Origin: a virus
Strand: one strand, 5' to 3'
Virus record (IMG/VR): IMGVR_UViG_3300044732_000442
Span: 32,001-96,000 of that record
Length of the DNA: 64,000 nt
Part shown: positions 4-30,532 of the stretch, piece after piece
How the letters are laid out: each line of letters starts with the position of its first letter
Position numbering within the stretch: the stretch's first letter is position 1
Made by a program: the position numbers and the translations under genes
Notes under the pieces: generated by a model
Told to the model about the DNA's origin: nothing
Databases searched by the model: none
What the model saw: only the letters and a program-made list of their open reading frames with translations

Positions 4-627
4 ATGGTAACAATAGAATTATTAACAGCAATGTGTCCAAAAACAAAACGCTCTATATTAGAGGGTTACGTTGAGCCACTAAACACAGTAGCAGAATACT
101 ATGAGATGTTTGAAAACCCACGCAGAGTTGCCGGCTTCTTAGCACAGATAGCACATGAGAGTGGTGGTTTTAATGCTGTCATTGAAAACTTAAATTACAG
201 TGCTAAAGGATTGATGGGTACGTTTAAAAAATATTTCCCCAATGAAGAACTAGCAAAGCAATATGAACGTAAACCAGAAATGATTGCTAATCGTGTTTAT
301 GCTAATCGTATGAAGAACGGCGATGAGAACAGTGGTGATGGATTCAGATTCAGAGGTCGTGGATTGATTCAATTGACCGGGCGTGACAACTATACACGTT
401 TTGCAGAAGCATTAGACATGAGTATTGAAGATACCGTAAGATATTTAGAAACACCAAATGGTGCTGTTGCAAGTGCTGGTTGGTTTTGGGATAACAATAA
501 ATTAAATCAGTTCTGTGACCGCGATGATTTTGTAACACTAACAAAACGTATCAATGGTGGTACTATTGGGTTAGAAGATAGAAAACATCACTATCACTTA
601 GCATTAGAAAATTTAGGCGCACATTAA
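4..627 (+). CDS. Glycoside hydrolase family 19 endolysin
   Basis: FLAQIAHESGGF, ENLNYS, FRGRGLIQLTGRDNY, TKRINGG are typical phage GH19 lysin motifs. Confidence 0.93.
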   Translation: MVTIELLTAMCPKTKRSILEGYVEPLNTVAEYYEMFENPRRVAGFLAQIAHESGGFNAVIENLNYSAKGLMGTFKKYFPNEELAKQYERKPEMIANRVYANRMKNGDENSGDGFRFRGRGLIQLTGRDNYTRFAEALDMSIEDTVRYLETPNGAVASAGWFWDNNKLNQFCDRDDFVTLTKRINGGTIGLEDRKHHYHLALENLGAH

Positions 628-9066: not shown

Positions 9067-9675
9067 ATGAAAACCGCAGACGAATTTTTTGACAATGTTG
9101 ATTATGTAAGCATAATTGACACCGTAAAAGGTATATTTACCAGCGACGGATCAATGGCTGTATTACTAGACTACGAGCGAGTACTAGATGAAGCCGACTT
9201 ATATGCATTTAAGAACTGGGAATTGGGTGAATTAGTCCAAGGTCCTGATGTTAAACGCTATACAGTAGCATGTATATTCATGTATCCATACAAACTAATG
9301 CCAGACCCACGTGGTGCAAAACGTTTAGCTAGTGTGGGATGCAAAATTAAGTTTAAAAAGACAAAAATTAAAGTACCTGTAGCAGTAGAAAATCCAGATG
9401 ATTACATTCCCGGTACACGTTATCCTAAAACAGCTATGCGTGAAGTATGGCTAATATACATTGAAATGCCTAAAGAATTGATGGATGATATCCGTGAAGG
9501 TTCAATTGATTTAGCTGGTCAGAACATTGACTTAAATGAGCTAGATGATGCATATGATGATGACTTAGATAAAGAAGATACTGGTGAGGATGATGACCAG
9601 GAACAAGATATGATGGATCAAACGGGCACTGCAGCACCAGGCATGGGTATGCCTCCTCCATTACCACAAATGTAA
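9067..9675 (+). CDS. Hypothetical phage protein with acidic/Pro-rich tail
   Basis: ATG 9067 after gaTAAATA; in frame with ORF 9025..9675. Confidence 0.65.
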   Translation: MKTADEFFDNVDYVSIIDTVKGIFTSDGSMAVLLDYERVLDEADLYAFKNWELGELVQGPDVKRYTVACIFMYPYKLMPDPRGAKRLASVGCKIKFKKTKIKVPVAVENPDDYIPGTRYPKTAMREVWLIYIEMPKELMDDIREGSIDLAGQNIDLNELDDAYDDDLDKEDTGEDDDQEQDMMDQTGTAAPGMGMPPPLPQM

Positions 9676-9679
9676 TATT

Positions 9680-10237
9680 ATGACAAATAAAACAATATTA
9701 AATGAGGGATTAGAATATCATGACCTAGAGGGGCAAATGCTCCCTACAGTAACTGTGGATGAATATGCCGCACATATGGGTGATGATAGTGAAATTGTCA
9801 CATTGGCATTTACAGTTAAAAGTGCTGCCGCTGCCAATGATTTAGTTGATTGGTTTGAACGTGGTTATGATTGGGTACTTGATGCACAAGTTAGTGAAGG
9901 CGAAGTAAAGCCAGGTCAATATCTAGTGTTTGTTGAAATGAATCGTAGAAGTAGTGTACCTAAACGTATCATAGAATTATTAGATGATTTAGAAACATTA
10001 ACAGCCATACCAGTTAAAGATTGGACTATTGTTGTAGATGAAGAAGAACATTCTCCTGAAGAAGATATATTGAAACAAGTTATAACTATTAGTCCACATG
10101 ATTATCGTGAAACTGAAGAAGTTGAAGAAGAAGAAATTAATGAGATGCGTGAACGTGCTGGACTAGAAGTTAAACCAATTCATACAGATAAACAAGATGC
10201 TGATATCAAAGCATTTAAAGCAATGGCAGGATTATAA
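9680..10237 (+). CDS. Hypothetical protein, possible head-associated
   Basis: Starts MTNKTILNE (capsid-targeting-like); ends AMAGL. Confidence 0.6.
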   Translation: MTNKTILNEGLEYHDLEGQMLPTVTVDEYAAHMGDDSEIVTLAFTVKSAAAANDLVDWFERGYDWVLDAQVSEGEVKPGQYLVFVEMNRRSSVPKRIIELLDDLETLTAIPVKDWTIVVDEEEHSPEEDILKQVITISPHDYRETEEVEEEEINEMRERAGLEVKPIHTDKQDADIKAFKAMAGL

Positions 10238-17799: not shown

Positions 17800-18732
17800 A
17801 TGCAACTTGACAATGTAACTATTAGTGGTGGATTTGCTTATACAGTAGGAGCTCCCACTCAAGCAACAGCAGGATGGTATGGTGGAGGTAGAGCACCATC
17901 ATCTGTATCTACCGTGCAAAGAATAACTTTTGCAACTGACACCTCAACAGCAAGTGTACGTGGTCCATTAAGCTTCATCGTATCTCAATTTGCCGCGGCC
18001 GGCAATACAACTAACGGATGGTTTGGCGGAGGTTATACAGAGCCTGGACAAACATCTACAGTTCAACGAATAACATACGCAACAGATACAGCAACAGCGA
18101 CAGCACGTGGTCCTTTAAGTTTAACACTAAGTGGTTTAGTAGCCACCGGTAATACAACTGACGGTTGGTTTGGCGGAGCCTTTTCCATATCAACCGTAAA
18201 TAGGATCACTTATTCAACAGATACAGCAACTGCATCGGTTCGAGGTCCATTTAGCGCAAGTAAACTATTTTCGGCAGCAGCCGGTAATACAACTGACGGA
18301 TGGTTTTTTGGAGGCAGAGGATCTGAGTCGGTAGTAAATCGTATAACATATGCAACAGATACAAATACTGCAAGTGTACGTGGTCCGGTAAGTTTTGGTG
18401 TTGAGGCAGCAGCCGGTACCGGCAACACCACCGACGGATGGTTTGGAGGTGGTTATTCACCGGGCAATGGGAGGATTAGTACTATACAACGAATAACATA
18501 CTCAACAGATACAGCAACAGCAAGTGTTCGTGGTCCTTTAAGTGTAGCCGGGAGTTCCTGGTCTGCATCTAGTGACACCACATATGGATGGTTTGGTGGA
18601 GGTTATGTCGTTCCTAATATAATATCTACAATTCAACGAATAACTTTTGCAACAGATACTGTAACAGCGACAGCACGTGGACCGTTAAGTCTAGCAAGCC
18701 GACAGTTGGCCAGTGCATCCGGTATACAATAA
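17800..18732 (+). CDS. Repeat protein type A, six ~48-aa repeats (beta-propeller-like adhesin)
   Basis: 6x GWF/YGG...STVQRITYATDTATASVRGPLS. Confidence 0.75.
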   Translation: MQLDNVTISGGFAYTVGAPTQATAGWYGGGRAPSSVSTVQRITFATDTSTASVRGPLSFIVSQFAAAGNTTNGWFGGGYTEPGQTSTVQRITYATDTATATARGPLSLTLSGLVATGNTTDGWFGGAFSISTVNRITYSTDTATASVRGPFSASKLFSAAAGNTTDGWFFGGRGSESVVNRITYATDTNTASVRGPVSFGVEAAAGTGNTTDGWFGGGYSPGNGRISTIQRITYSTDTATASVRGPLSVAGSSWSASSDTTYGWFGGGYVVPNIISTIQRITFATDTVTATARGPLSLASRQLASASGIQ

Positions 18733-18735
18733 AAT

Positions 18736-19959
18736 ATGGACTTAAAAGAACTACATTCATTCAAAATGTCAGATGCAGTGACATTTCACGATAACCTCAA
18801 TCCAAAATTATTTCGTGGTCAGCACTTACAGCCTGAAGTAGAACTACAACTAAAAAATATAGCACAAGATTTCTTACAAGAGATGGGGATACATGATTTA
18901 GATGTACGAGATATCACTATCTCTGGAAGTAATGCAGCCTATAGCTACACAGACCATAGCGACTTAGATTTACATATATTAGTCAATATGAAGGATCTAC
19001 CAGACGATGACATTTACCATGAATTCTTCAAAGCTAAAAAAGATTTATACAACGATTCACATGATATCACTATCAATGGAATTCCAGTAGAATTGTATAT
19101 ACAGGATGCGGCAGAACCTGTAACTAGTTTAGGTGAATATAGTGTTAAAGATAAGAAATGGTTGCGTTTGCCAACTAAACGTAGAGCAAATTTTGACCAA
19201 ACAGCTACTAAAGCAAAATATACAAAACTATTAGATATTATTGATACAGCATTACAATCTAATAAAATAGGTAAAGTTAATAAAATATTAAAAAAGATTA
19301 AGCAATATCGTCAAGCTGGCTTAGATAAAGGTGGAGAGTTTGGACCTGAAAATCTAGCATATAAAGCATTACGTAGCCGTGGATATATTACAAAACTATA
19401 TGATTTAAGAGATAGATTACATAGCAAACATTTGAGTTTAGATAACATGTATGCTAATGTAGATGAAGATTATGATCCAAATGGACCTCCACCTGGTCCA
19501 GAGTTTAAGCCAACAATGCCTGCCGGTACAGTTAAAGTAGATGTAAGTGATGTATATGATTGGTATAAACTAGGTCAACATATTAGCAATCTTGATGGTT
19601 TAGGTAAACATGATTTTGGTCAAGGTCCTCCTAGCACTATTCTTGCGTTTGGCGATGAAGATACTGAACATAAATATATTAAAGATTTAGAAAAAACAGG
19701 ATTGACAACAACGGATATTGATCCAGTTGATATTAATCAGCCTAAAGGTATGAAACGTCAGAAGACTGATCCTACATACAATGTGGGCGAAGCCTCAGGT
19801 TATATACCATCTGAAAAAGAGAAAAAAGACCCACGTTTTAGTACAGCATTAACAGTAGATGTTAAGCCTGACAGCATCAAAAAGAACGCAAAAGCATTCT
19901 ATTGGAATACAAGTAGAGCGGGTATTCCACCAACAGCAAAGCCATCAGGCAAAATCTAA
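18736..19959 (+). CDS. Pol-beta-superfamily nucleotidyltransferase with appended modules
   Basis: GSNAAY...SDLDLH and VELYIQD catalytic pattern. Confidence 0.7.
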   Translation: MDLKELHSFKMSDAVTFHDNLNPKLFRGQHLQPEVELQLKNIAQDFLQEMGIHDLDVRDITISGSNAAYSYTDHSDLDLHILVNMKDLPDDDIYHEFFKAKKDLYNDSHDITINGIPVELYIQDAAEPVTSLGEYSVKDKKWLRLPTKRRANFDQTATKAKYTKLLDIIDTALQSNKIGKVNKILKKIKQYRQAGLDKGGEFGPENLAYKALRSRGYITKLYDLRDRLHSKHLSLDNMYANVDEDYDPNGPPPGPEFKPTMPAGTVKVDVSDVYDWYKLGQHISNLDGLGKHDFGQGPPSTILAFGDEDTEHKYIKDLEKTGLTTTDIDPVDINQPKGMKRQKTDPTYNVGEASGYIPSEKEKKDPRFSTALTVDVKPDSIKKNAKAFYWNTSRAGIPPTAKPSGKI

Positions 19960-20014: not shown

Positions 20015-20938
20015 ATGAAAATCAAACAAATCACTGAAACTACAACCGCAGGCTCAATAGCTACTGTAAATTCACCATTAGGTGGCACTCAAAGTAGGGG
20101 AAATACTAGCATATATGGTGGCAAAAAAGTAGGAACTCTATTCAAGGGTAAAAAGACTAGTGTCCCATATGCTAATAGCATCAATGAAAGTGCTGAACTT
20201 AGTGAAGCACAACTAGAAGAAGATGATGTTATTGTCGTTCCGGGACAAGGTCGCAAATCAAAAACTGGATTTGTTCCACATGGACAAAGTCGTATAGACC
20301 ATGAAGTTGAGATGGCACGTAGTGATTTATTCAGTGCCGCAAAGAATGCTCAACAAGTCTATTCAATGATTAAAGATGTTAGTGAAGATGAAGGTCTTGA
20401 TGGTTGGGTACAAGAAAAGATTATTAAAGCTAATGACTATCTAAACACAATACGTGAATACTTAGAAGGTAAACAAATTCAAGGTGTGAATGAAGGACCC
20501 GAGTTTGGTTCAAAGTATGCAGAAAAATTAGCACAATATGTTTATAATGTTAGACCTAATCTTAATAGTGAAGATGATGTTTTAAACATAGGATATAAAG
20601 TTGCTGTACAAGATTTAGCCAGTCAAACACGTGCTGTATCGTTGTTTAGCAGAGATCAAGATTTCCCTAGTGACTTTGTAAGTGCTTATAGATTCTTACA
20701 AAAAAGACGAGGTGTAACAGAAAACAACCAAAGAGGTGATTCACTTGTTACTGACTCATTAAAAATAATGCGTGGTGCAGAAGTAAGTGATGCTGTAAGA
20801 GCACTAACGACCGTACTAGGAAATAGAGAATACAATAGCCGTCGTGGTTTTTACAATTTCTATATTAAACAAATGATTGATATGTATAGACAACAAGGTG
20901 TGAATGAAGGTTCTAAGTCACCTAATAAGAAAGCGTAA
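20015..20938 (+). CDS. Modular internal head protein (putative)
   Basis: ATG 20015 MKIKQITE after gaTAAATA; QGVNE linkers. Confidence 0.6.
   Translation: MKIKQITETTTAGSIATVNSPLGGTQSRGNTSIYGGKKVGTLFKGKKTSVPYANSINESAELSEAQLEEDDVIVVPGQGRKSKTGFVPHGQSRIDHEVEMARSDLFSAAKNAQQVYSMIKDVSEDEGLDGWVQEKIIKANDYLNTIREYLEGKQIQGVNEGPEFGSKYAEKLAQYVYNVRPNLNSEDDVLNIGYKVAVQDLASQTRAVSLFSRDQDFPSDFVSAYRFLQKRRGVTENNQRGDSLVTDSLKIMRGAEVSDAVRALTTVLGNREYNSRRGFYNFYIKQMIDMYRQQGVNEGSKSPNKKA
20480..20910 (+). repeat. 17-nt direct repeat caaggtgtgaatgaagg (20480-20496 and 20894-20910)
   Basis: Exact repeat encoding the QGVNEG linker. Confidence 0.85.
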
Positions 20939-20939
20939 T

Positions 20940-23741
20940 ATGAGCAATATTCTTAAAGGTATAATAAACGAAACTAGTCCGCATAATTACGATAGTGATT
21001 GGGATTATCAGGATGCTTTAGCACGTAGTGGCAAATCACGTTCTAGCTATCGTTCACAAGAAGATGATACGTCTGATGCTGATATTGCATATTCTAAAAA
21101 GATGTATCAATTGGGTCAACAACAGAAGGCTGCTAAAGAGAAAGCTCAACGTGATAATGACCATGATAGATTAGCAACTGGTACAAATGAAGATGATAGT
21201 AATCAAACTAGAATGAGAATGAATGATTATTACGATTTAGCTGAGGCTCTTCAGGAAAAGCTTAGACAAGCAATTAAGATGGGTAATAACGAACTTGTAC
21301 ATAAATTATCCAAAGAACGTGCTGAATTAGATGCACGTGTTAAAAAATATGGATTAATGCCTGAATCAGAACAATTAGATGAAATCTCTAATGAGAAATT
21401 GGCACAATACAAAACAGCTGCCGCCGCCGACGCAGGCAAAGCTGATAAAGAGGGAGACTTTAAGCGTGGTGATAAACGTTTCAGTGGTATTGTTAAAGCA
21501 ACTAAGAAACAATTTGCAAATGATACAAAGAAATCTGGTATAGGTCAAGGTATTTCAGAAGATAGATTTAACAGTAAACAAGAAGTTATTAACCATTTTG
21601 TTAAAAATGGTAAAAGTGCGGCAGCAGGTGCGGCAGCATGGGAACGTGGTTATAGAGGTTCAAATCCTAACAAACCAATAGAAATAAAAAAGCCACCTCA
21701 AAGAAGTTACCATGATGATTTAGATGATAAACGTTATTCTAATACGTTTGAAAATTTAGGTGATCAACTAAAATCACAATCTCTAGAAGCATTACAACAA
21801 ATCAAACAACAAATTGAACAAAAACGTGCCGACGAATTAGCTCAATGGGAACAAGATTTTAGAAATAATGTTGCTGGCAAAATGAGAAGCCAACCAATAC
21901 GTTCACCGGAAGCAACACCGGTTGCACAACCTGGTGAGAAGCATTCAGTATTAAAAGCTAGATTAGCACAACTCAATAATGCTATACAAAAACAAGAACT
22001 ATTGGACAAGTTAATTGATAAAATTGACCGTAAAGGTTTGTTGACTCCAGCAATGCAGAACGATGCTGATACTAGAATGCATGTTAAGTATGGTGCAAAA
22101 GATAACTATCAATCATTGAATAAAAAGTTAGACAATTCTATTTCAATGTTACAGGATAGATTGTATATACGTAAAAAATCAGGTTTAAAAGAATCGCCTA
22201 AGAGAATTGATTATGATAGTGATACATATGATAATACTAGAATGGGTAGAGAGTATGGCAAGGCTAATCTATTTGTAGATCCGGGGTCAAATGAATTTAA
22301 AAAAGAAATACATCCTGGAGATCCTGAAGGTGAACGTGGTAGACCAAGAAATCTAAAAGGTATTTCAAAAAGGTTACCTGCTGATGCGTTTGGTCGTACT
22401 AGCGGAGTTGTTCCTGATAGTGCAAGACCTAAATCAAAAGAAGATCCTTTTAAAGGAGTAGATGAAGCTGATATGAACCGTAGAGGGTTTTTAGGACAAG
22501 CAGGCAAGGCTGCAGGTGCTGGCGCATTGGCTGCCGCAGGCTTAGGTGGTGCTAGCAATGCTCAAGCATTTAAGGGAACACTTCCTGCTCCTCGTATATC
22601 TGAAGATGAGGCTGAAGCTCAAATTAAAGAATTAAGAAGTAAAGCATATAAAGAGTTAGCAAGTATGATGTGGAATGTATGGCCTAAAATACTAGACACA
22701 ACATTTGGCGCAAATACTCCTCAAGATAAGCCAGCTACACCCGATGAAATTGGTAAAATGTTAGGCTACAGATTAGCTGAATATGCTGATGACTATAGAC
22801 AAAAAGTTAGAGCAATTAAAATAGCAGCCGGAGTAAGAGATCCTCAAAGTTTAAATAAAACAACTGCCGCAATTTATGTTAATGAACAAGAGATGGATGA
22901 GGGTTGGAGTCAAAAGTACAAGAGTAGTATCAACTGTAGTCATCCTAAAGGTTTTAGTCAAAAAGCTCATTGTGCAGGCAAGAAGAAACACAATGAAAGT
23001 ATTGACAATGTTATGGAAATGACATGTCCTGATTGTGGTATGTGTGAAACTCACGTAGACCATGCTAAGTTAGATGAAGCTTGTTGGAAAGGTTATCACA
23101 AAGAAGGTAACAAAAAAATGTTTGGCAAAACATATCCTAACTGTGTAAAGAATACTAACGAAGAACAACTAGATGAAAAATGCTGGGACACACATAAACA
23201 AGTTGGAATGAAAAACAAAGGTGGACGTATGGTCCCTAACTGTGTGCCTAAAGAAAGTGTAGAAGAACAACATTCACATAGTGAAAGTTGTCCGCATTGT
23301 GGTGGCGAGATGGTTAGTGAAGAACTAATGAATGAAAAGAAAGATGCTTGCTACTACAAAGTAAAGAGCCGTTATAAAGTATGGCCAAGTGCTTATGCAT
23401 CTGGTGCGTTAGTTAAGTGCCGCAATAAAGGCGCAAGTAACTGGGGTACAGGCGGAAAGAAAAATGAAAGCTCTATACTAGAAGGTATTGAACAAGCAGA
23501 CGAAAGTTTACATGATTGGTTCAATAAAGAAAAATGGGTTCGCATGGATACTAAAGGAAAGATTAAAGGTCCGTGTGCAAGAGAACCAGGCGAAGGTAAA
23601 CCAAAATGTTTGCCACAAAGTAAAGCACATAGTCTAGGTAAAAAGGGTCGTGCTAGTGCCGCTCAACGTAAGCGTAGAGAAGATCCTAATCCAGAACGTA
23701 GTGGCAAAGCCATTAATGTTGATACAAAAAAGAAAGATTAA
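20940..23741 (+). CDS. Large mosaic polyprotein, putative head-packaged
   Basis: MSNILKGIINE start; many short modules bounded by LDE/GISE/GVDE; internal Tat-like signal; Cys-rich C-terminal modules. Confidence 0.65.
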   Translation: MSNILKGIINETSPHNYDSDWDYQDALARSGKSRSSYRSQEDDTSDADIAYSKKMYQLGQQQKAAKEKAQRDNDHDRLATGTNEDDSNQTRMRMNDYYDLAEALQEKLRQAIKMGNNELVHKLSKERAELDARVKKYGLMPESEQLDEISNEKLAQYKTAAAADAGKADKEGDFKRGDKRFSGIVKATKKQFANDTKKSGIGQGISEDRFNSKQEVINHFVKNGKSAAAGAAAWERGYRGSNPNKPIEIKKPPQRSYHDDLDDKRYSNTFENLGDQLKSQSLEALQQIKQQIEQKRADELAQWEQDFRNNVAGKMRSQPIRSPEATPVAQPGEKHSVLKARLAQLNNAIQKQELLDKLIDKIDRKGLLTPAMQNDADTRMHVKYGAKDNYQSLNKKLDNSISMLQDRLYIRKKSGLKESPKRIDYDSDTYDNTRMGREYGKANLFVDPGSNEFKKEIHPGDPEGERGRPRNLKGISKRLPADAFGRTSGVVPDSARPKSKEDPFKGVDEADMNRRGFLGQAGKAAGAGALAAAGLGGASNAQAFKGTLPAPRISEDEAEAQIKELRSKAYKELASMMWNVWPKILDTTFGANTPQDKPATPDEIGKMLGYRLAEYADDYRQKVRAIKIAAGVRDPQSLNKTTAAIYVNEQEMDEGWSQKYKSSINCSHPKGFSQKAHCAGKKKHNESIDNVMEMTCPDCGMCETHVDHAKLDEACWKGYHKEGNKKMFGKTYPNCVKNTNEEQLDEKCWDTHKQVGMKNKGGRMVPNCVPKESVEEQHSHSESCPHCGGEMVSEELMNEKKDACYYKVKSRYKVWPSAYASGALVKCRNKGASNWGTGGKKNESSILEGIEQADESLHDWFNKEKWVRMDTKGKIKGPCAREPGEGKPKCLPQSKAHSLGKKGRASAAQRKRREDPNPERSGKAINVDTKKKD

Positions 23742-23750
23742 AGAGTAATT

Positions 23751-24191
23751 ATGTTGTCAGACAATCTAAAAGTATTACTAGCAAGCACACAAAGTTTTGC
23801 TATCAAAACACAAAACTTTCATTGGAACGTAGAGGGAAGTAACTTTCCACAATATCACGAATTCTTTAATACATTGTACGAAGATGTAAGTGCTACGATT
23901 GATCCTATTGCTGAATATATAAGAATACTAGGTCACTATACTCCTGGCAGTCTAACACGTTATGCTGAACTAAGTATCATACAAGACCAAATAAAGATTC
24001 CACGTGCTGAATTAATGTTTGTTGAATCATTACAAGATTGTGAAACAATGCTTCAGTTAGTAACAGCAATGTTTGATGAGGCAGCTGGTGAGAATCAACA
24101 TGGTATTGAAAACTATATGGCTGAACTACAAGACTTGTATGGTAAGAAAGCATGGTTCATTCGTTCTATATTAAAAAGAGAACGTGAATGA
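23751..24191 (+). CDS. dps: Dps / ferritin-like DNA-protecting protein
   Basis: KTQNFHWNVEG...FPQYHEFF...DPIAEYIR...KKAWF. Confidence 0.9.
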   Translation: MLSDNLKVLLASTQSFAIKTQNFHWNVEGSNFPQYHEFFNTLYEDVSATIDPIAEYIRILGHYTPGSLTRYAELSIIQDQIKIPRAELMFVESLQDCETMLQLVTAMFDEAAGENQHGIENYMAELQDLYGKKAWFIRSILKRERE

Positions 24192-25066
24192 GAGCAACAG
24201 AGTTTATTACCGAACAAGCAAATCCTAAAGTAGATTTGACTCCAAATTATCCTAACTATCAAGTGTTAGTGGGTGAGTTTGTCGGTATGAAAAAAAACAG
24301 AGCAAGATTTTTAATTGTAGCCTCTGAACTTAAACCAGGTGTGCGAGAGACTGATAAAATTTTTAGAGCTAGAACTACTAATACACCTATCAGTATTGAG
24401 ATTGGTAGGGTAAAAAATCGTAATGTAGTAGATGAAGATTTATCACGTAGAGGCTTCTTAGGTGGTTTAGCTGGTATGGCTGCACTAGGTACTAGAGATA
24501 CAAAACCTACTGTTAATAAAGATACACCAACGGCACCACAAAAAGAACCTACTGTAACTACATTGAGTAACAATCCTCAAATTGAGAGTTTATTACATAA
24601 AGCCGCTGTAGCTGCCGGTATAGTTGGTATTGAATTAGCACAGTTTATGGCTCAAACTAAACATGAATCCTGGAATTTTAGTAGACTAAAAGAAAAGGGT
24701 GTAGGTCAAGGCTATTTTGCTAAAAAGTATGACCGTCAATATGCACCACGTACTGCTAAGATATTGGGTAATAAGCAGATAGGTGATGGAGAAAAATATC
24801 ATGGTCGTGGATTTATTCAATTGACCGGTCGTGATAACTATCGTATGGCTAGTCAAAGTTTAGGTATTGATTTATTAAATGATCCTGATTTAGCAGAACG
24901 ACCAGATGTTGCAGCCAAGATTGCTATATGGTATTGGAAGACACGTGTTAAACCCTATATAAATAACTTCAACGATACGAAGGCAGTAACACAAAAGATT
25001 AATCCAGCACTACGTGGATTACAAGATAGACATGCAAAGTTTATTGACTACAAAAACATATTATAA
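24188..25066 (+). CDS. GH19 lysozyme-like domain preceded by capsid-targeting start and internal Tat-like motif
   Basis: MRATEFITE; DE|DLSRRGFLGG; FMAQTKHES, YHGRGFIQLTGRDNY. Confidence 0.85.
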   Translation: MRATEFITEQANPKVDLTPNYPNYQVLVGEFVGMKKNRARFLIVASELKPGVRETDKIFRARTTNTPISIEIGRVKNRNVVDEDLSRRGFLGGLAGMAALGTRDTKPTVNKDTPTAPQKEPTVTTLSNNPQIESLLHKAAVAAGIVGIELAQFMAQTKHESWNFSRLKEKGVGQGYFAKKYDRQYAPRTAKILGNKQIGDGEKYHGRGFIQLTGRDNYRMASQSLGIDLLNDPDLAERPDVAAKIAIWYWKTRVKPYINNFNDTKAVTQKINPALRGLQDRHAKFIDYKNIL

Positions 25067-25074
25067 AGAGAACC

Positions 25075-25512
25075 ATGAAGAAAATAATAACAATCATACT
25101 ATTAGCAATATCTACTATTGCATTTGCACAAAAACAAAAGCCAATGAATGTATATGATTTTACAATCACTAGAGTTATTGATGGAGATACAGTAGCATTT
25201 CAAGCAACATTTTTACCCCCACCATTAAAGCAAGAATTAAGTATTCGTGTGTTTGGTGTTGACACACCTGAAAAGGGTCATAGAGCAATGTGCCCCAGTG
25301 AAGCACAGCGTGGCGAGGCTGCTTCGGCCTTCACAAAAAATGCCATAGCTAAAGCACAGAAACGTCAAGTAGCTATAGCTGATTGGGATAAGTATGGTGG
25401 ACGTGTATTGGGTGATATATTACTTGATGGACAAAGTTTAAGAATGATGTTAATACAGAATGGATTTGCAAGAGAATACTACGGAGAAGCTAAAACTTCT
25501 TGGTGCAACTAA
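25075..25512 (+). CDS. Thermonuclease (SNase-like) with Sec signal peptide
   Basis: MKKIITIILLAISTIAFA signal; RVIDGDT, IRVFGVDTPE, DKYGGRVLG. Confidence 0.88.
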   Translation: MKKIITIILLAISTIAFAQKQKPMNVYDFTITRVIDGDTVAFQATFLPPPLKQELSIRVFGVDTPEKGHRAMCPSEAQRGEAASAFTKNAIAKAQKRQVAIADWDKYGGRVLGDILLDGQSLRMMLIQNGFAREYYGEAKTSWCN

Positions 25513-25609: not shown

Positions 25610-26185
25610 ATGAGAGCAATAGAACTATACGAATCGGCCGCAAGTGAACTAGCTAAGAAACTTCCTAGCTTAGAGAAACACGACTATAATACCATTGATA
25701 AGCTAATGAAAAACATAGCAAAGAAACATCGTATAACCGGTGATGCATTGCATGATTTGTTTGTTAGAAAATATCATAAGACTCCAGACAGTTGGATTAA
25801 AGATAAACTAGATGAGAGTGAACAAGAAGATTTGAATAACAATCCTATTGTACAGAAGTTTCTTGCTTGGACAAGTAAGAAGTTGAATTTAGAAAATACT
25901 CCAAAGATAGAGTTTAGTTATGATAGTGATGAAGCACAAGAAGGTCATCATACTGGTAGACACAATCCAGAGACGGGTGAAGTATGGGTTTATTGTGCTA
26001 ATAGAAATCTAGTAGATATATTACGTACTGTGTTCCATGAATTAACTCATGTACGCCAGGGTGAATTAAATATGATTAAGCCGGGTGATAGTTATCCAGG
26101 TAGTCCAATAGAAGCAGAAGCGGATGTAATGGCTGGCAAATATATTAAAATATTTGGTAAAGCACATCCAGAAATATTTCAATAA
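25610..26185 (+). CDS. Putative head-packaged protein with HExxH zincin-like domain
   Basis: ATG 25610 MRAIELYE after caTAAATA; LDESEQE linker; VFHELTHVRQ...EAEA. Confidence 0.7.
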   Translation: MRAIELYESAASELAKKLPSLEKHDYNTIDKLMKNIAKKHRITGDALHDLFVRKYHKTPDSWIKDKLDESEQEDLNNNPIVQKFLAWTSKKLNLENTPKIEFSYDSDEAQEGHHTGRHNPETGEVWVYCANRNLVDILRTVFHELTHVRQGELNMIKPGDSYPGSPIEAEADVMAGKYIKIFGKAHPEIFQ

Positions 26186-26197
26186 AGAGAATAAAAT

Positions 26198-27202
26198 ATG
26201 TCAATATCAATAACAGGTGGAATATCATTTAGTGGTGGAGTAGGAATAACTGCCGCACCACCATCAACTCCAACAGCAGGATGGTTTGCAGGTGGGTCTG
26301 ACGATTCTGGTGTTACTTCAACAGTACAACGAATAACATATGCAACTGATACCGCTACTGCAAGTGTTCGTGGACCATTAAACGGCACCAGATATCAAAA
26401 TGCCGGTACCGGTAATTTAAATTATGGATGGTTTGCTGGTTCACGCATTACAGTTGCTATTAGCTCAGTATCAAGGATCACCTATGCAACAGATACTGAT
26501 ACAGCAAGTAATCGCGGCCCACTAAGTTATAGTGCTTATAGTATTACTGCGAACGGCACAGATACATATGGATGGTTTGCAGGTGGTAAGGATCAATCAC
26601 CTAGTGATTATTCTACAGTATCCAGAATAACATACGCAACTGATACTGGTACTGCAAGTACAAGGGGATCATTATCCGGTTGTTCATATCAAGGTGCAGC
26701 ATCTACTGACAGCACTACATATGGCTGGATTGCAGTAGGATTTGATAACCCTAGTACTATCGGATACCGTAGTATCGTAACTAGGATAACATATGCCACT
26801 GATACAGTAACATCAACTATTAGAGGTCCATTAAGTTCAACTAGATCATCAATGGCCGGTACTGGTAGTACAAGTTATGGTTGGTTTGCCGGTGGATTTT
26901 TCGTCGGCCCGCCGACATGGGAGGGAATTTATTATTCTAGGGTAGATCGTATTGATTATGCAAATGATACCGCTACAGCAAGTGTTCGTGGTCCGTTAAC
27001 TAGAACTAATCAAGGTCAAGCAGCATCAACCGATGGAACAACATATGGTTGGTTTGGTGGAGGAAATAATTTTTCAACTCCTGCCGGTCCTTTTTCTTCC
27101 GTAGACAGAATAACATATGCTACTGATACTGTTACTGCGACTGCACGTGGCCCGTTAAGTTCCGGTAGGAGGGTTTTTGCTGCCTCATCCGGTATACAAT
27201 AA
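26198..27202 (+). CDS. Repeat protein type A (six repeats), paralog of 17800..18732
   Basis: 6x GWFAG...RITYATDT...RGPL; same C-terminal SGIQ. Confidence 0.75.
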   Translation: MSISITGGISFSGGVGITAAPPSTPTAGWFAGGSDDSGVTSTVQRITYATDTATASVRGPLNGTRYQNAGTGNLNYGWFAGSRITVAISSVSRITYATDTDTASNRGPLSYSAYSITANGTDTYGWFAGGKDQSPSDYSTVSRITYATDTGTASTRGSLSGCSYQGAASTDSTTYGWIAVGFDNPSTIGYRSIVTRITYATDTVTSTIRGPLSSTRSSMAGTGSTSYGWFAGGFFVGPPTWEGIYYSRVDRIDYANDTATASVRGPLTRTNQGQAASTDGTTYGWFGGGNNFSTPAGPFSSVDRITYATDTVTATARGPLSSGRRVFAASSGIQ

Positions 27203-27217
27203 TATAAAGGTTAAAAA

Positions 27218-27715
27218 ATGTCAATAACAATAACAGGTGGAATAACATTAAATGGTGGTGGTTGGACTATTGAGGCACCACCGGCGGGTATTAGGGCTAT
27301 ATTTGGTTATGGAAATGATGGATCAGTAACATCAATAACTAATTTAGTATCAACTACTGGTGTTGTTGCCACAGATACCGCAGGGGTAGGGACTGCTAGA
27401 TATGGATTGGCAGCCGCAGGATATGGCACAGATAAAGCTATATTTGGATATGGATATGCCTCTCCAAGCGCACGTTCAATCACCAATCTAGTATCAAATA
27501 CAGGTGTTGTTGCTACTGATACAGCAGGTGTAGGTACTGCTAGATATCAAATAGCCGCCGCAGTGTATGGCACAGATAAGGCTATATTTGGTTATGGATA
27601 CGGGGTTTCTTGGACATCAATAACTAACCTAGTATCAAACACCGGTGTAGTAGCAACAGATACAACAGGTGTTGGCACTGCTAGAGCTGAAATTGCGGCA
27701 GCAGCCTACGGTTAA
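27218..27715 (+). CDS. Repeat protein type B (3 repeats)
   Basis: AIFGYG...TNLVSNTGVVATDTxGVGTAR...AAAxYG x3. Confidence 0.75.
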   Translation: MSITITGGITLNGGGWTIEAPPAGIRAIFGYGNDGSVTSITNLVSTTGVVATDTAGVGTARYGLAAAGYGTDKAIFGYGYASPSARSITNLVSNTGVVATDTAGVGTARYQIAAAVYGTDKAIFGYGYGVSWTSITNLVSNTGVVATDTTGVGTARAEIAAAAYG

Positions 27716-27737
27716 TTATACAATAAAGGTTTTATAA

Positions 27738-28397
27738 ATGTCAATAACAATAACAGGTGGAATAACATTAAATAATGGTGGTTGGACTATAGTTGCACCA
27801 CCCGCAGGTAATAAAGCTATCTTTGGATACGGGACTGATGGTATTTCTCTATTAGCAATGACCAATCTAGTATCAAACACTGGTGTAGTAGCCAATGATA
27901 CTACAGGTGTTGGTACTGCTAGATTATACTTAGCAGCCGCCGGCTATGGAACAGATAAAGCTATTTTTGGATATGGGGTTACATACTCTCCAGGTTTCAC
28001 TCCTTACTCAATTACCAATCTTGTATCAAATACAGGTGTTGTTGCTACTGATACAACAGGTGTTGGAACTGCTAGAGGAACATTAGCAGCCGCAACCTAT
28101 GGCACTGATAAAGCTATATTTGGATACGGGTATAACGGAAGTACTAATGTATCAACTACTAATCTAGTATCAAACACAGGTGTTGTTGCTAGTAATACTA
28201 CAGGTGTTGGAACTATTAGAGGAACATTAGCAGCCTCAGGTTATAGCACTGATAAAGCTATATTTGGATATGGATTTGCCAATAGTGGCATAGTGTCAAT
28301 GACTAACCTAGTATCAAACACAGGTGTTGTTGCTACTGATACTACAGGTGTTGGAACTGCTAGAGAGGAATTAGCGGCCGCAAGTTACGGATCTTAA
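27738..28397 (+). CDS. Repeat protein type B (4 repeats)
   Basis: Same repeat x4. Confidence 0.75.
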   Translation: MSITITGGITLNNGGWTIVAPPAGNKAIFGYGTDGISLLAMTNLVSNTGVVANDTTGVGTARLYLAAAGYGTDKAIFGYGVTYSPGFTPYSITNLVSNTGVVATDTTGVGTARGTLAAATYGTDKAIFGYGYNGSTNVSTTNLVSNTGVVASNTTGVGTIRGTLAASGYSTDKAIFGYGFANSGIVSMTNLVSNTGVVATDTTGVGTAREELAAASYGS

Positions 28398-28440
28398 CAT
28401 TATGATTAACATAAATACATTTATTATAAAGGAAAATAAA

Positions 28441-28656
28441 ATGATAGACTTAGAAAACATGCCTGCTCCAACAGCAGAGGAAATTGCACAAGCAAGAGAA
28501 AATGCATTTAATGCAGAACATCCAGCATCATGGACATGGGATGAGGCAGCAACTACATATGTTGCTCCAGTTGCTATTCCAAGTGATGGTTATCCATACT
28601 TATGGGATGAAGCTACAACTAATTGGGTACCATTTCCAGATTATCCAAGAGAATAA
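28441..28656 (+). CDS. Small Trp/Pro-rich protein, fibre-associated type
   Basis: ATG 28441 with aagga RBS and upstream caTAAATA; internal WDEA(A)TT duplication. Confidence 0.6.
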   Translation: MIDLENMPAPTAEEIAQARENAFNAEHPASWTWDEAATTYVAPVAIPSDGYPYLWDEATTNWVPFPDYPRE

Positions 28657-28659
28657 AGA

Positions 28660-29583
28660 ATGTCGGTAACATTTAGTGGTGGCGGTGTAACAATATCAGG
28701 CGGAGGATGGACTCTTAGTCCTCCACCAGGTGGTAGTAAGGCTATCTTTGGATATGGTTATAACGGGACAAATTTGTCAATTACTAATTTAGTATCAAAC
28801 ACAGGTGTTGTTGCCAATGATACTACAGGTGTCGGTACTGCTAGATTTGGATTGGCGGCCGCAGGATATGGCACAGATAAAGCTATATTTGGATATGGAT
28901 TCGGAGCTAGTAGAACGTCAATAACTAACCTAGTATCAAATACAGGTGTAGTTGCTACTGATACTTCAGGAGTTGGAACTGTTAGAAGTGATTTAGGAGC
29001 CGCAGGATATGGTACTGATAAAGCTATATTTGGTTATGGATATACAGGTGGTGTCTCTTTTATATCAATAACCAATCTAGTATCAAATACGGGTGTGGTT
29101 TCCGGTGATACTGCAGGTGTTGGTACTGCTAGAGGTTATCTTGCAGCCGCAGGTTATGGCACTGACAAAGCTATTTTTGGATATGGTAACGGTAGCGGAT
29201 TGCAATCAATAACCAATCTAGTATCAAACACGGGGGTTGTTGGCAACAATGTTACAGGTGTAGGTACTGCTAGAGATAGTCTTGCAGCCGCTAGTTATGG
29301 TACTGATAAAGCTATATTTGGTTATGGATCTGGACCAACTGCAATAACTAACTTAGTATCAAACACAGGTGTAGTTGCTACTGATACAACAGGTGTTGGA
29401 ACTGCTAGATATTATCTTGCGGCCGCAGGATATGGGGTAGGTACAGCTATATTTGGATACGGTGAGAATGGTAGTATTAATGTATCAATGACCAACTTAG
29501 TATCAAACACCGGTGTAGTTGCTACAGATACTACAGGTGTCGGTACTGCTAGACAATTATTAGCGGCCGCAAGTTACGGTTAA
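28660..29583 (+). CDS. Repeat protein type B (6 repeats)
   Basis: Same repeat x6. Confidence 0.75.
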   Translation: MSVTFSGGGVTISGGGWTLSPPPGGSKAIFGYGYNGTNLSITNLVSNTGVVANDTTGVGTARFGLAAAGYGTDKAIFGYGFGASRTSITNLVSNTGVVATDTSGVGTVRSDLGAAGYGTDKAIFGYGYTGGVSFISITNLVSNTGVVSGDTAGVGTARGYLAAAGYGTDKAIFGYGNGSGLQSITNLVSNTGVVGNNVTGVGTARDSLAAASYGTDKAIFGYGSGPTAITNLVSNTGVVATDTTGVGTARYYLAAAGYGVGTAIFGYGENGSINVSMTNLVSNTGVVATDTTGVGTARQLLAAASYG

Positions 29584-29605
29584 TTATACAAAGAAAGAAT
29601 AAAGA

Positions 29606-30532
29606 ATGTCGGTAACATTAAACGGTGGTGTAACATTTGGCGGAGGGTTAACTCTTACTGCCGGACCAGCCGGTAATAAAGCTATATTTGGATACGGGTA
29701 CATTTCAGCAGTAGGAGAGACTGCAATAACCAATCTAGTAAGTAATACAGGCGTTGTAGCAACTGATACAGCTGGAGTAGGTACTACCAGAACTAACCTA
29801 GCGGCGGCTGGGTATGGTACTGATAAAGCCTTATTTGGTTATGGAGAAGGAAATGGTACTTATTTATCAATAACTAACAAAGTAAGTAATACAGGTGTGG
29901 TGGCTAATGATACTGCAGGTGTTGGTACTGGTAGAACTGGAATTGCAGCCGCAGGTTACGGGACTGATAAAGCTATATTTGGATATGGCTACGCCTCTGG
30001 CGGCAGAACAGCAATAACTAACAAAGTATCAAACACCGGAGTAGTTGCTACTGATACGACAGGTGTAGGTACTATTAGAAATGGACTAGCGGCCGCAGGC
30101 TATGGAACCGATAAAGCTATATTTGGATATGGGCAAAATTATCCCACTTATTATTCGTTAACCAATCTAGTAAGTAATACAGGTGTAGTAGCAACTGATA
30201 CAACTGGTGTTGGAACTATTAGAAGTGAGCTAGCGGCAGCAGGTTATGGTACGGATAAGGCTATATTTGGATATGGATATGCTTCCGACAATTCAAGTGT
30301 ATCAATGACCAACCTAGTATCAAACACAGGAGTAGTAGCAACAGATACGACTGGTGTTGGTACTGCTAGGTTTTATCTAGCTGCCGCTGTTTACGGCACT
30401 GATAAAGCTATATTTGGATATGGAGTAACAACAGCAGTAACTAATTTAGTATCAAATACAGGTGTGGTTGCTACAAATACTACTGGTGTTGGTACAGCAA
30501 GATATTCACTTGCGGCGGCCGCCTACGGTTAA
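29606..30532 (+). CDS. Repeat protein type B (6 repeats)
   Basis: Same repeat x6. Confidence 0.75.
   Translation: MSVTLNGGVTFGGGLTLTAGPAGNKAIFGYGYISAVGETAITNLVSNTGVVATDTAGVGTTRTNLAAAGYGTDKALFGYGEGNGTYLSITNKVSNTGVVANDTAGVGTGRTGIAAAGYGTDKAIFGYGYASGGRTAITNKVSNTGVVATDTTGVGTIRNGLAAAGYGTDKAIFGYGQNYPTYYSLTNLVSNTGVVATDTTGVGTIRSELAAAGYGTDKAIFGYGYASDNSSVSMTNLVSNTGVVATDTTGVGTARFYLAAAVYGTDKAIFGYGVTTAVTNLVSNTGVVATNTTGVGTARYSLAAAAYG

Follow-up and report, generated by a model that had tools for sequence, protein, structure and literature searches.

The locus described here raises the question of why a phage protein should carry a twin-arginine translocation (Tat) signal peptide not at its N-terminus but in its middle. 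The protein is the product of a modular 'polyprotein' open reading frame (ORF) in a 64,000-nucleotide stretch of viral DNA, referred to below as the window, which comprises bases 32001-96000 of the 116-kb IMG/VR viral contig IMGVR_UViG_3300044732_000442 (CheckV completeness 34%). The best explanation is that the signal and the helical cargo of about 105 residues behind it form a single mobile module, within a virion-borne modular protein resembling the internal proteins of phage T4. The features concerned are collected in Table 1. A close relative of the window, locus L003 (89% identity across the region in question), lies on the 348.7-kb contig G001, which is rated 100% complete; a further related locus is designated L010. 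The ORF most likely begins at ATG 20940, and not at the ATG 20904 of the ORF listing, the relatives beginning MSNILKGIINE; because of this start, the twin arginines (RR) are residues 514-515.

A complete Tat-type signal in mid-protein

The initial annotation of this DNA, made from the sequence alone, had described GVDE, RRGFLG, an Ala/Gly core, AQA, FKG and a cargo running to YVNE as a complete Tat signal placed behind a linker glutamate. This reading proved exact: positions 22455-22466 read in frame as G-V-D-E, the signal follows directly on the junction glutamate, and F-K-G follows the signal directly at 22569. The completeness of the signal was also borne out, the segment scoring 17.5 bits against TIGR01409 (TAT_signal_seq), for which the cut-off is 16.7. 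Its N-R-R-G-F-L-G, with a lysine four residues beyond, matches the twin-arginine consensus (S/T)-R-R-x-F-L-K; the 16-residue Ala/Gly/Leu core of its hydrophobic (h-)region has a mean Kyte-Doolittle value of 1.2, against 2.7 in the Sec-type signal of a neighbouring nuclease; and an AxA signal-peptidase site (A-Q-A/F) follows the core. The signal is the sole uncharged run of at least 14 residues in the 933-residue protein, and also its most hydrophobic 17-residue window. In its RR-x-F-L core, weakly hydrophobic Ala/Gly h-region and AxA c-region it is like bacterial Tat signals (TIGR01409 / PF10518), from which it differs in being phage-encoded and in lying 510 residues inside a protein, with RR at residue 514 of 933 here and at residues 99-823 in relatives. 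It would come to stand at an N-terminus solely after cutting at the junction glutamate, or through internal initiation of translation.

Such motifs are scarce. Only two RRxF[LIVM] motifs occur within ORFs of the 116-kb contig, both of them in the setting VDE-x3/4-RRGFLG, and the complete relative G001 has one; in shuffled proteomes of the contig, the motif with a further 18 mostly uncharged residues behind it has an expectation of 0.012. The signal is nearly invariant across four aligned relatives. To judge from these sequence properties, it probably works as a Tat-type export signal, however it comes to be exposed.

Signal and cargo as one mobile unit

A first homologue search, of 1.84 billion representative proteins, returned five clusters, and a second search found 31 long homologues. 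Of these, 27 have the signal ahead of the cargo, and RR-G-F-L-G is invariant at cargo identities down to 33-56%. The protein is a single uninterrupted ORF of 774-1174 residues in about 27 relatives, and at least nine unrelated modules are found upstream of the signal among the long homologues. In eleven upstream contexts A-D-M is preceded by VDE, IDE, LKE, VEE or VKE; once it is preceded by DDK. Locus L003 lacks the module found before the signal in the window, and the join there reads exactly GLKE/ADM, while the 173-residue protein P0005 bears the same kind of signal and cargo behind a mere 13-residue tag ending in I-V-N-E. More generally, it is at x-x-E junctions that the aligned homologous polyproteins gain and lose modules, and large insertions and deletions in them mostly start after GTNE, GI[SN]E, GLKE, [IM]DE, QLDE and similar sequences; the alignment of 25 polyproteins forces unrelated modules together and is too noisy for a clean junction statistic.

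The suggestion of the initial annotation that the pairing of a junction glutamate with RRGFLG reflects a system and not chance is upheld by this retention of the signal, together with the layout of a GH19 gene seen in about 100 protein clusters (below). Absence of the motif from homologous modules, which had been named in advance as a refuting outcome, is for the most part not what is seen, as the 27 show, although three further proteins carry the cargo with no signal before it. A query with the signal alone retrieves just the same cargo family, and this particular signal is therefore not shared with other cargos. The cargo itself, foreseen as helical, is modelled by AlphaFold2 as a helical hairpin (helices 12-46 and 58-86; pLDDT 76.7). 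It belongs to no Pfam or NCBIfam family and has no Foldseek match in the PDB at E <= 0.001, and the ESM Atlas gave no usable lead.

The methionine of the conserved E-A-D-M, which stands before N/S-RR throughout the polyprotein family, speaks for internal initiation at ATG 22473, the alternative put forward with the initial annotation, whereby a separate, ordinary Tat precursor (MNRRGFLG...) would be made. The AGGAG that had been pointed out 14 nt upstream of this ATG is present in the window; it is, however, encoded by K-G-V of the window's own upstream module and is absent from L003 and L010, and its spacing is atypical of a genome in which 5-9 nt is usual. P0005 has no methionine at that place, and the GH19 gene reads D-L-S before RR, with no start codon near the motif. 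No enrichment of an internal promoter or terminator was found. An internal start was rejected as a general explanation on the grounds of the window-only AGGAG, its spacing and the GH19 gene, and is very unlikely.

A second case in the neighbouring GH19 gene

The other RRGFLG of the contig lies next door, in a gene for a GH19 muramidase. Its Tat-like segment (24437-24490, RR at 24446-24451) reads D-L-S-R-R-G-F-L-G-G followed by a short Ala/Gly core, and scores 13.9 bits against the Pfam model TAT_signal (PF10518), which is under the cut-off. Among the 120 best homologous clusters surveyed, 101 carry RR[GN]F. The 34 short forms have RR 12-19 residues from the start, immediately behind MRATEFIxE; the 67 long forms have, between tag and signal, a module of one of at least five kinds, so that RR lies at residues 43-162. 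The tripeptide [LIVMF]-x-[ED] directly precedes D-[IL]-[ST]-RRGF in every one of the long forms (67/67) and in 98 of the 101 RR-bearing clusters, in which AxA-type ends are kept too. A quick maximum-likelihood tree of the region from RR to the end implies no fewer than 20 changes of N-terminal architecture, of which at least nine are required by well-supported branches; RR persists through all of them.

About a dozen GH19 homologues (P0051, P0057, P0080, P0083, P0093, P0094, P0100, P0104, P0105 and P0109-P0111) have, in place of the RR signal, a hydrophobic segment without RR, of the form [LIV]-x-E/GWKDWVAGA…LGAAAL…ADAK; two kinds of signal-like peptide thus follow junction glutamate sites. 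These forms, and the three homologues of the polyprotein that dispense with the segment, can be read in favour of the possibility that the Ala/Gly segment is no export signal but a weak membrane anchor, an ejection pore helix, a flexible linker or the decaying relic of a captured secreted protein, the more so since helices of low hydrophobicity rich in Ala and Gly also occur in signal-arrest-release (SAR) domains and in linkers. A relic would decay, whereas RRGFLG is invariant both over the range of cargo identity given above and over some 100 GH19 clusters; the persistence of the AxA-type ends and the above-threshold score of the hidden Markov model likewise argue against this view, which appears improbable.

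The same gene of L003 and L010 lacks the Tat-GH19 part, the ORF ending just before it, and the phages of both loci have another, weak GH19-like gene; the lysozyme is therefore an accessory cargo and not an essential endolysin. As a muramidase that would cross the inner membrane by a host pathway, with no holin, it is comparable with SAR and signal-peptide endolysins. The known exported endolysins, however, use Sec and N-terminal signals, whereas the GH19 signal is of Tat type and is preceded by a tag or by an entire module; a further difference is that the GH19 gene is dispensable, as its absence from the complete relative shows. The literature searched yielded no phage endolysin that depends on Tat and is laid out in this way, and when cultured phages were searched by tblastn with the GH19 gene, matches were confined to the catalytic domain, with no tag-Tat layout among them. 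A 207-residue ORF at window positions 4-627, conserved in G001 (311327-311797), shows a weak similarity to GH19 (14-18 bits) and may be the ordinary lysozyme of the phage.

Tags, head protease and modules shared with virion proteins

How might a signal buried in this way be exposed? The N-terminal tag of the polyprotein is kept as MS[NK]ILKG[IL][IL]NE in nearly all full-length homologues, and similar tags begin several unrelated ORFs of the contig. In T4, the capsid targeting sequence (CTS) MKTYQEFIAE is cut off by gp21 and is the sole conserved part of otherwise diverse internal proteins (PMC3012670). MSNILKGIINE is like the T4 CTS solely in its length and its [IL]-x-E end, and the GH19 tag MRATEFITE also bears a resemblance to it. 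As with T4 IPI, IPII, IPIII and Alt, a short tag ending in [IL]-x-E is found on unrelated, fast-evolving accessory proteins that are basic and poor in cysteine, in a phage lineage that has a gp21-family protease. The protease is seen in G001, whose head module comprises Portal_T4 (347 bits), Peptidase_S77 (gp21; 97 bits) and Gp23 (329 bits), and whose capsid protein has an N-terminal propeptide ending in L-L-A-E right before the conserved mature N-arm. The modular ORF preceding the polyprotein gene (20015-20938) starts MKIKQITE and continues TTTAGSIATVN (20039-20071), which matches 9 of 11 residues of the G001 capsid protein after the predicted cut (…LLAE/SSAG-TTTAGNIATLN, L017:10460-10492; pairwise E 0.036); this capsid-like start may be an N-arm mimic or may be due to chance.

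The C-terminal modules of the polyprotein match 372 cyanophage records by tblastn, and three modules of the ORF align, in other order, with S-SM1 SSM1_115 (E 1e-18, 5e-17 and 5e-7). This protein and P-SSM2 PSSM2_123 belong to the cyanomyovirus cluster T4-GC119, the members of which are basic and modular like the polyprotein and have at least three shuffled C-terminal modules in common with it, but are without a Tat signal, the helical cargo or the MSNILKG tag. Their genes sit in the structural gene region, between gp15 and gp16/gp17, and purified virions of S-SM1 were found to contain T4-GC119, with 13 peptide counts (Sullivan et al. 2010, PMC3037559, Table S8). The presence in cyanophage virions of proteins with homologous C-terminal modules is the sole experimental anchor for a virion location of the polyprotein, to which it would apply indirectly, by analogy.

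It is tempting to combine these elements into one pathway. The tag MSNILKGIINE would bring the precursor into the prohead, where the gp21-family head protease would cut after the [VIL]-x-E junctions, giving many small proteins, one of them with the free N-terminus ADMNRRGFLG...; the pieces would be ejected with the DNA into the cytoplasm of the next host, whose Tat translocase would export this one cargo to the periplasm, and signal peptidase would then cut after A-Q-A. To the whole chain of events, from head loading through cleavage at glutamate and ejection to export by the host, a probability of roughly 40% is assigned. It would differ from the case of the T4 internal proteins, which undergo a single cut and have their action in the cytoplasm, in that chains of 5-15 modules would be processed at many places, and in that one module carries a Tat signal which would send it to the periplasm, where the cargo may have its role. 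Tentatively, giant T4-related phages might on this basis be credited with a two-step protein address code, in which a capsid tag loads an effector chain and the head protease unmasks a Tat signal on selected modules.

Alternatives to cleavage in the phage head

Several observations weigh against the pathway just proposed. The contig of the window (34% complete) yielded no protease gene, and the S-SM1 virion protein lacks a Tat signal. The motif [LIVM]-x-E occurs 21 times in the ORF, which is about the expectation from composition, so that the motif count alone is without weight; some junctions read T-N-E or I-S-E and one D-D-K, and VDE could belong to the mobile module and not be an independent site. 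In the short GH19 forms the signal is an ordinary N-terminal Tat signal for which no cleavage is needed, and the tag could be its n-region. Lastly, in P0003, P0152 and P0153 the cargo stands directly behind another module, without the signal, and therefore does not strictly need it.

The signal might also act without cleavage at the junction, TatBC binding it internally as a hairpin, so that in the producing cell the approximately 510 N-terminal residues would stay in the cytoplasm and the downstream part would be exported and released at AQA. Thylakoid Tat substrates accept N-terminal extensions, and the same locus encodes nucleases with Sec signals, that is, periplasm-directed products. A cytoplasm/periplasm split would also predict the distribution of cysteine in the window ORF and P0126-P0151, which have 7 cysteines in 15,981 residues upstream of the signal (usually none in 500-800 residues) and 173 in 8,837 residues downstream, where they are mostly paired. 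As a mark of topology this asymmetry was discounted: the Cys-pair modules are found as well in cyanophage virion proteins that have no signal, and low cysteine is general for tagged and virion proteins, since the content is 0-0.3% in the tagged or modular proteins of the contig, similar to that of its sheath and other structural proteins, but 1-3.6% in its enzymes. In actinobacterial Rieske and other dual Sec-Tat membrane proteins a functional twin-arginine motif likewise lies away from the N-terminus, after Sec-inserted transmembrane helices (PMC5449189, PMC3471235); unlike these, the polyprotein has neither a hydrophobic window nor an uncharged run of 14 or more residues upstream of residue 514. 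Export without cleavage would, moreover, impose on the translocase the heavy load of a folded chain of at least six modules, and would leave unexplained the [VIL]-x-E found 3-4 residues before RR, the modules ending in glutamate and the tags resembling the T4 CTS. It is considered unlikely. The downstream Cys-pair modules may bind zinc or form disulfides.

If the chain is cut at its junctions, the peptidase could be another than gp21, acting in the cytoplasm either of the cell that produces the phage or of one newly infected. A candidate is encoded three genes downstream, at 25610-26185: a small protein with the tag MRAIELYES and a zincin-like HExxH motif (HELTH), itself modular in L003. Processing of this general kind has reportedly been proposed for phages and conjugative elements under the polyvalent-protein concept of Iyer and colleagues of 2017, and would fit such a scheme. 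The HExxH protein belongs to no Pfam family and might equally be a cytoplasmic effector, whereas gp21-type proteases are known for glutamate-specific cutting after [LIV]-x-E, and one is encoded in G001; the participation of another peptidase is accordingly given little credence. In L003 this protein (9146-10129) contains an inserted module resembling sigma-70 region 4 (…LRFWYDMTLQQIG…IRQIEAKGLRRLR).

Tat signals and T4 internal proteins are each textbook matter. In the searched literature no phage protein of virion type was found to have a Tat signal following a capsid tag or a protease junction, and no link was found between twin-arginine signals and ejected phage proteins. If processing in the head followed by Tat export does take place, it would be the first instance in which a host export pathway re-routes proteins brought in by the virion, and a natural example of a Tat signal unmasked by a protease. 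Phages would thereby place pre-made proteins in the periplasm of a new host within seconds of injection and before any phage gene expression, in a compartment relevant to superinfection exclusion, cell-wall remodelling and envelope-based defence. The T4 internal-protein concept, which concerns single anti-restriction proteins, would be widened to take in processed chains of several effectors, and the parts, a tag of 11 residues, a junction of three and a signal of 34, are portable and could serve in protein delivery by engineered phages.

Source phage and neighbouring genes

Table 1. Features of the polyprotein and GH19 genes (window positions).
Feature	Position	Strand	Remarks
Modular 'polyprotein' ORF	20940..23741	+	933 aa; start set by relatives
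N-terminal tag MSNILKGIINE, ending I-N-E	20940..20972	+	candidate capsid-targeting/propeptide sequence
Junction V-D-E, of head-protease type [VIL]-x-E	22458..22466	+	directly 5' of signal
Tat-type signal peptide: ADMN, RR (22479-22484), G-F-L-G, Ala/Gly/Leu core, N-A-Q-A	22467..22568	+	TIGR01409
Cargo, about 105 aa, ending Y-V-N-E	22569..22885	+	predicted helical hairpin
C-terminal basic modules with paired Cys	22886..23741	+	homologous to cyanophage T4-GC119 virion proteins
GH19 gene: MRATEFITE, 75-aa module, VVDE, Tat-like segment, Pro/Thr linker, muramidase	24188..25066	+	Pfam and sequence

The source of the window is, as far as its genes and those of its relatives tell, an uncultured giant T4-related phage, because the relative G001 has the T4-type head module and a propeptide-bearing capsid protein, and because the tail sheath matches those of jumbo myoviruses (43-47% identity to the sheaths of PA5oct and Atu_ph07). 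The window has a G+C content of about 36% and nearly all of its genes on the + strand; no tRNAs were found on it, and megablast against cultured phages gave no match. The T4 late-promoter core TATAAATA is depleted in the window as a whole (2 matches, where shuffles lead one to expect 11.7); the signals for late transcription must therefore be other than those of T4, and the depletion gives no clue to timing.

Between the polyprotein and GH19 genes lies a Dps/ferritin-like gene (23751-24191; PF00210, 62 bits) that is conserved in L003 and L010. Adjoining the GH19 gene is a staphylococcal-nuclease-like gene (25075-25512) with a classical Sec-type signal, and the equivalent place in L003 (8260-9072) is occupied by another, different gene for a secreted nuclease-like protein; products directed to the periplasm are therefore gathered at this locus. 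The cluster of modular proteins is flanked by many paralogous genes made up of repeats of about 47-52 residues (GWFGGG…RITYATDT or KAIFGYG…NLVSNTGVVATDT; window 17800-18732 and 26198-30532), the products of which have no cysteine and start MSITITGG. A phrog_36119 protein (MDLKELHS…), encoded at 18736-19959 in the window, at 2277-3191 in L003 and at 1655-2995 in L010, shows module swapping behind …NVDE or …NVSE junctions, with a different insert in each of the three phages.

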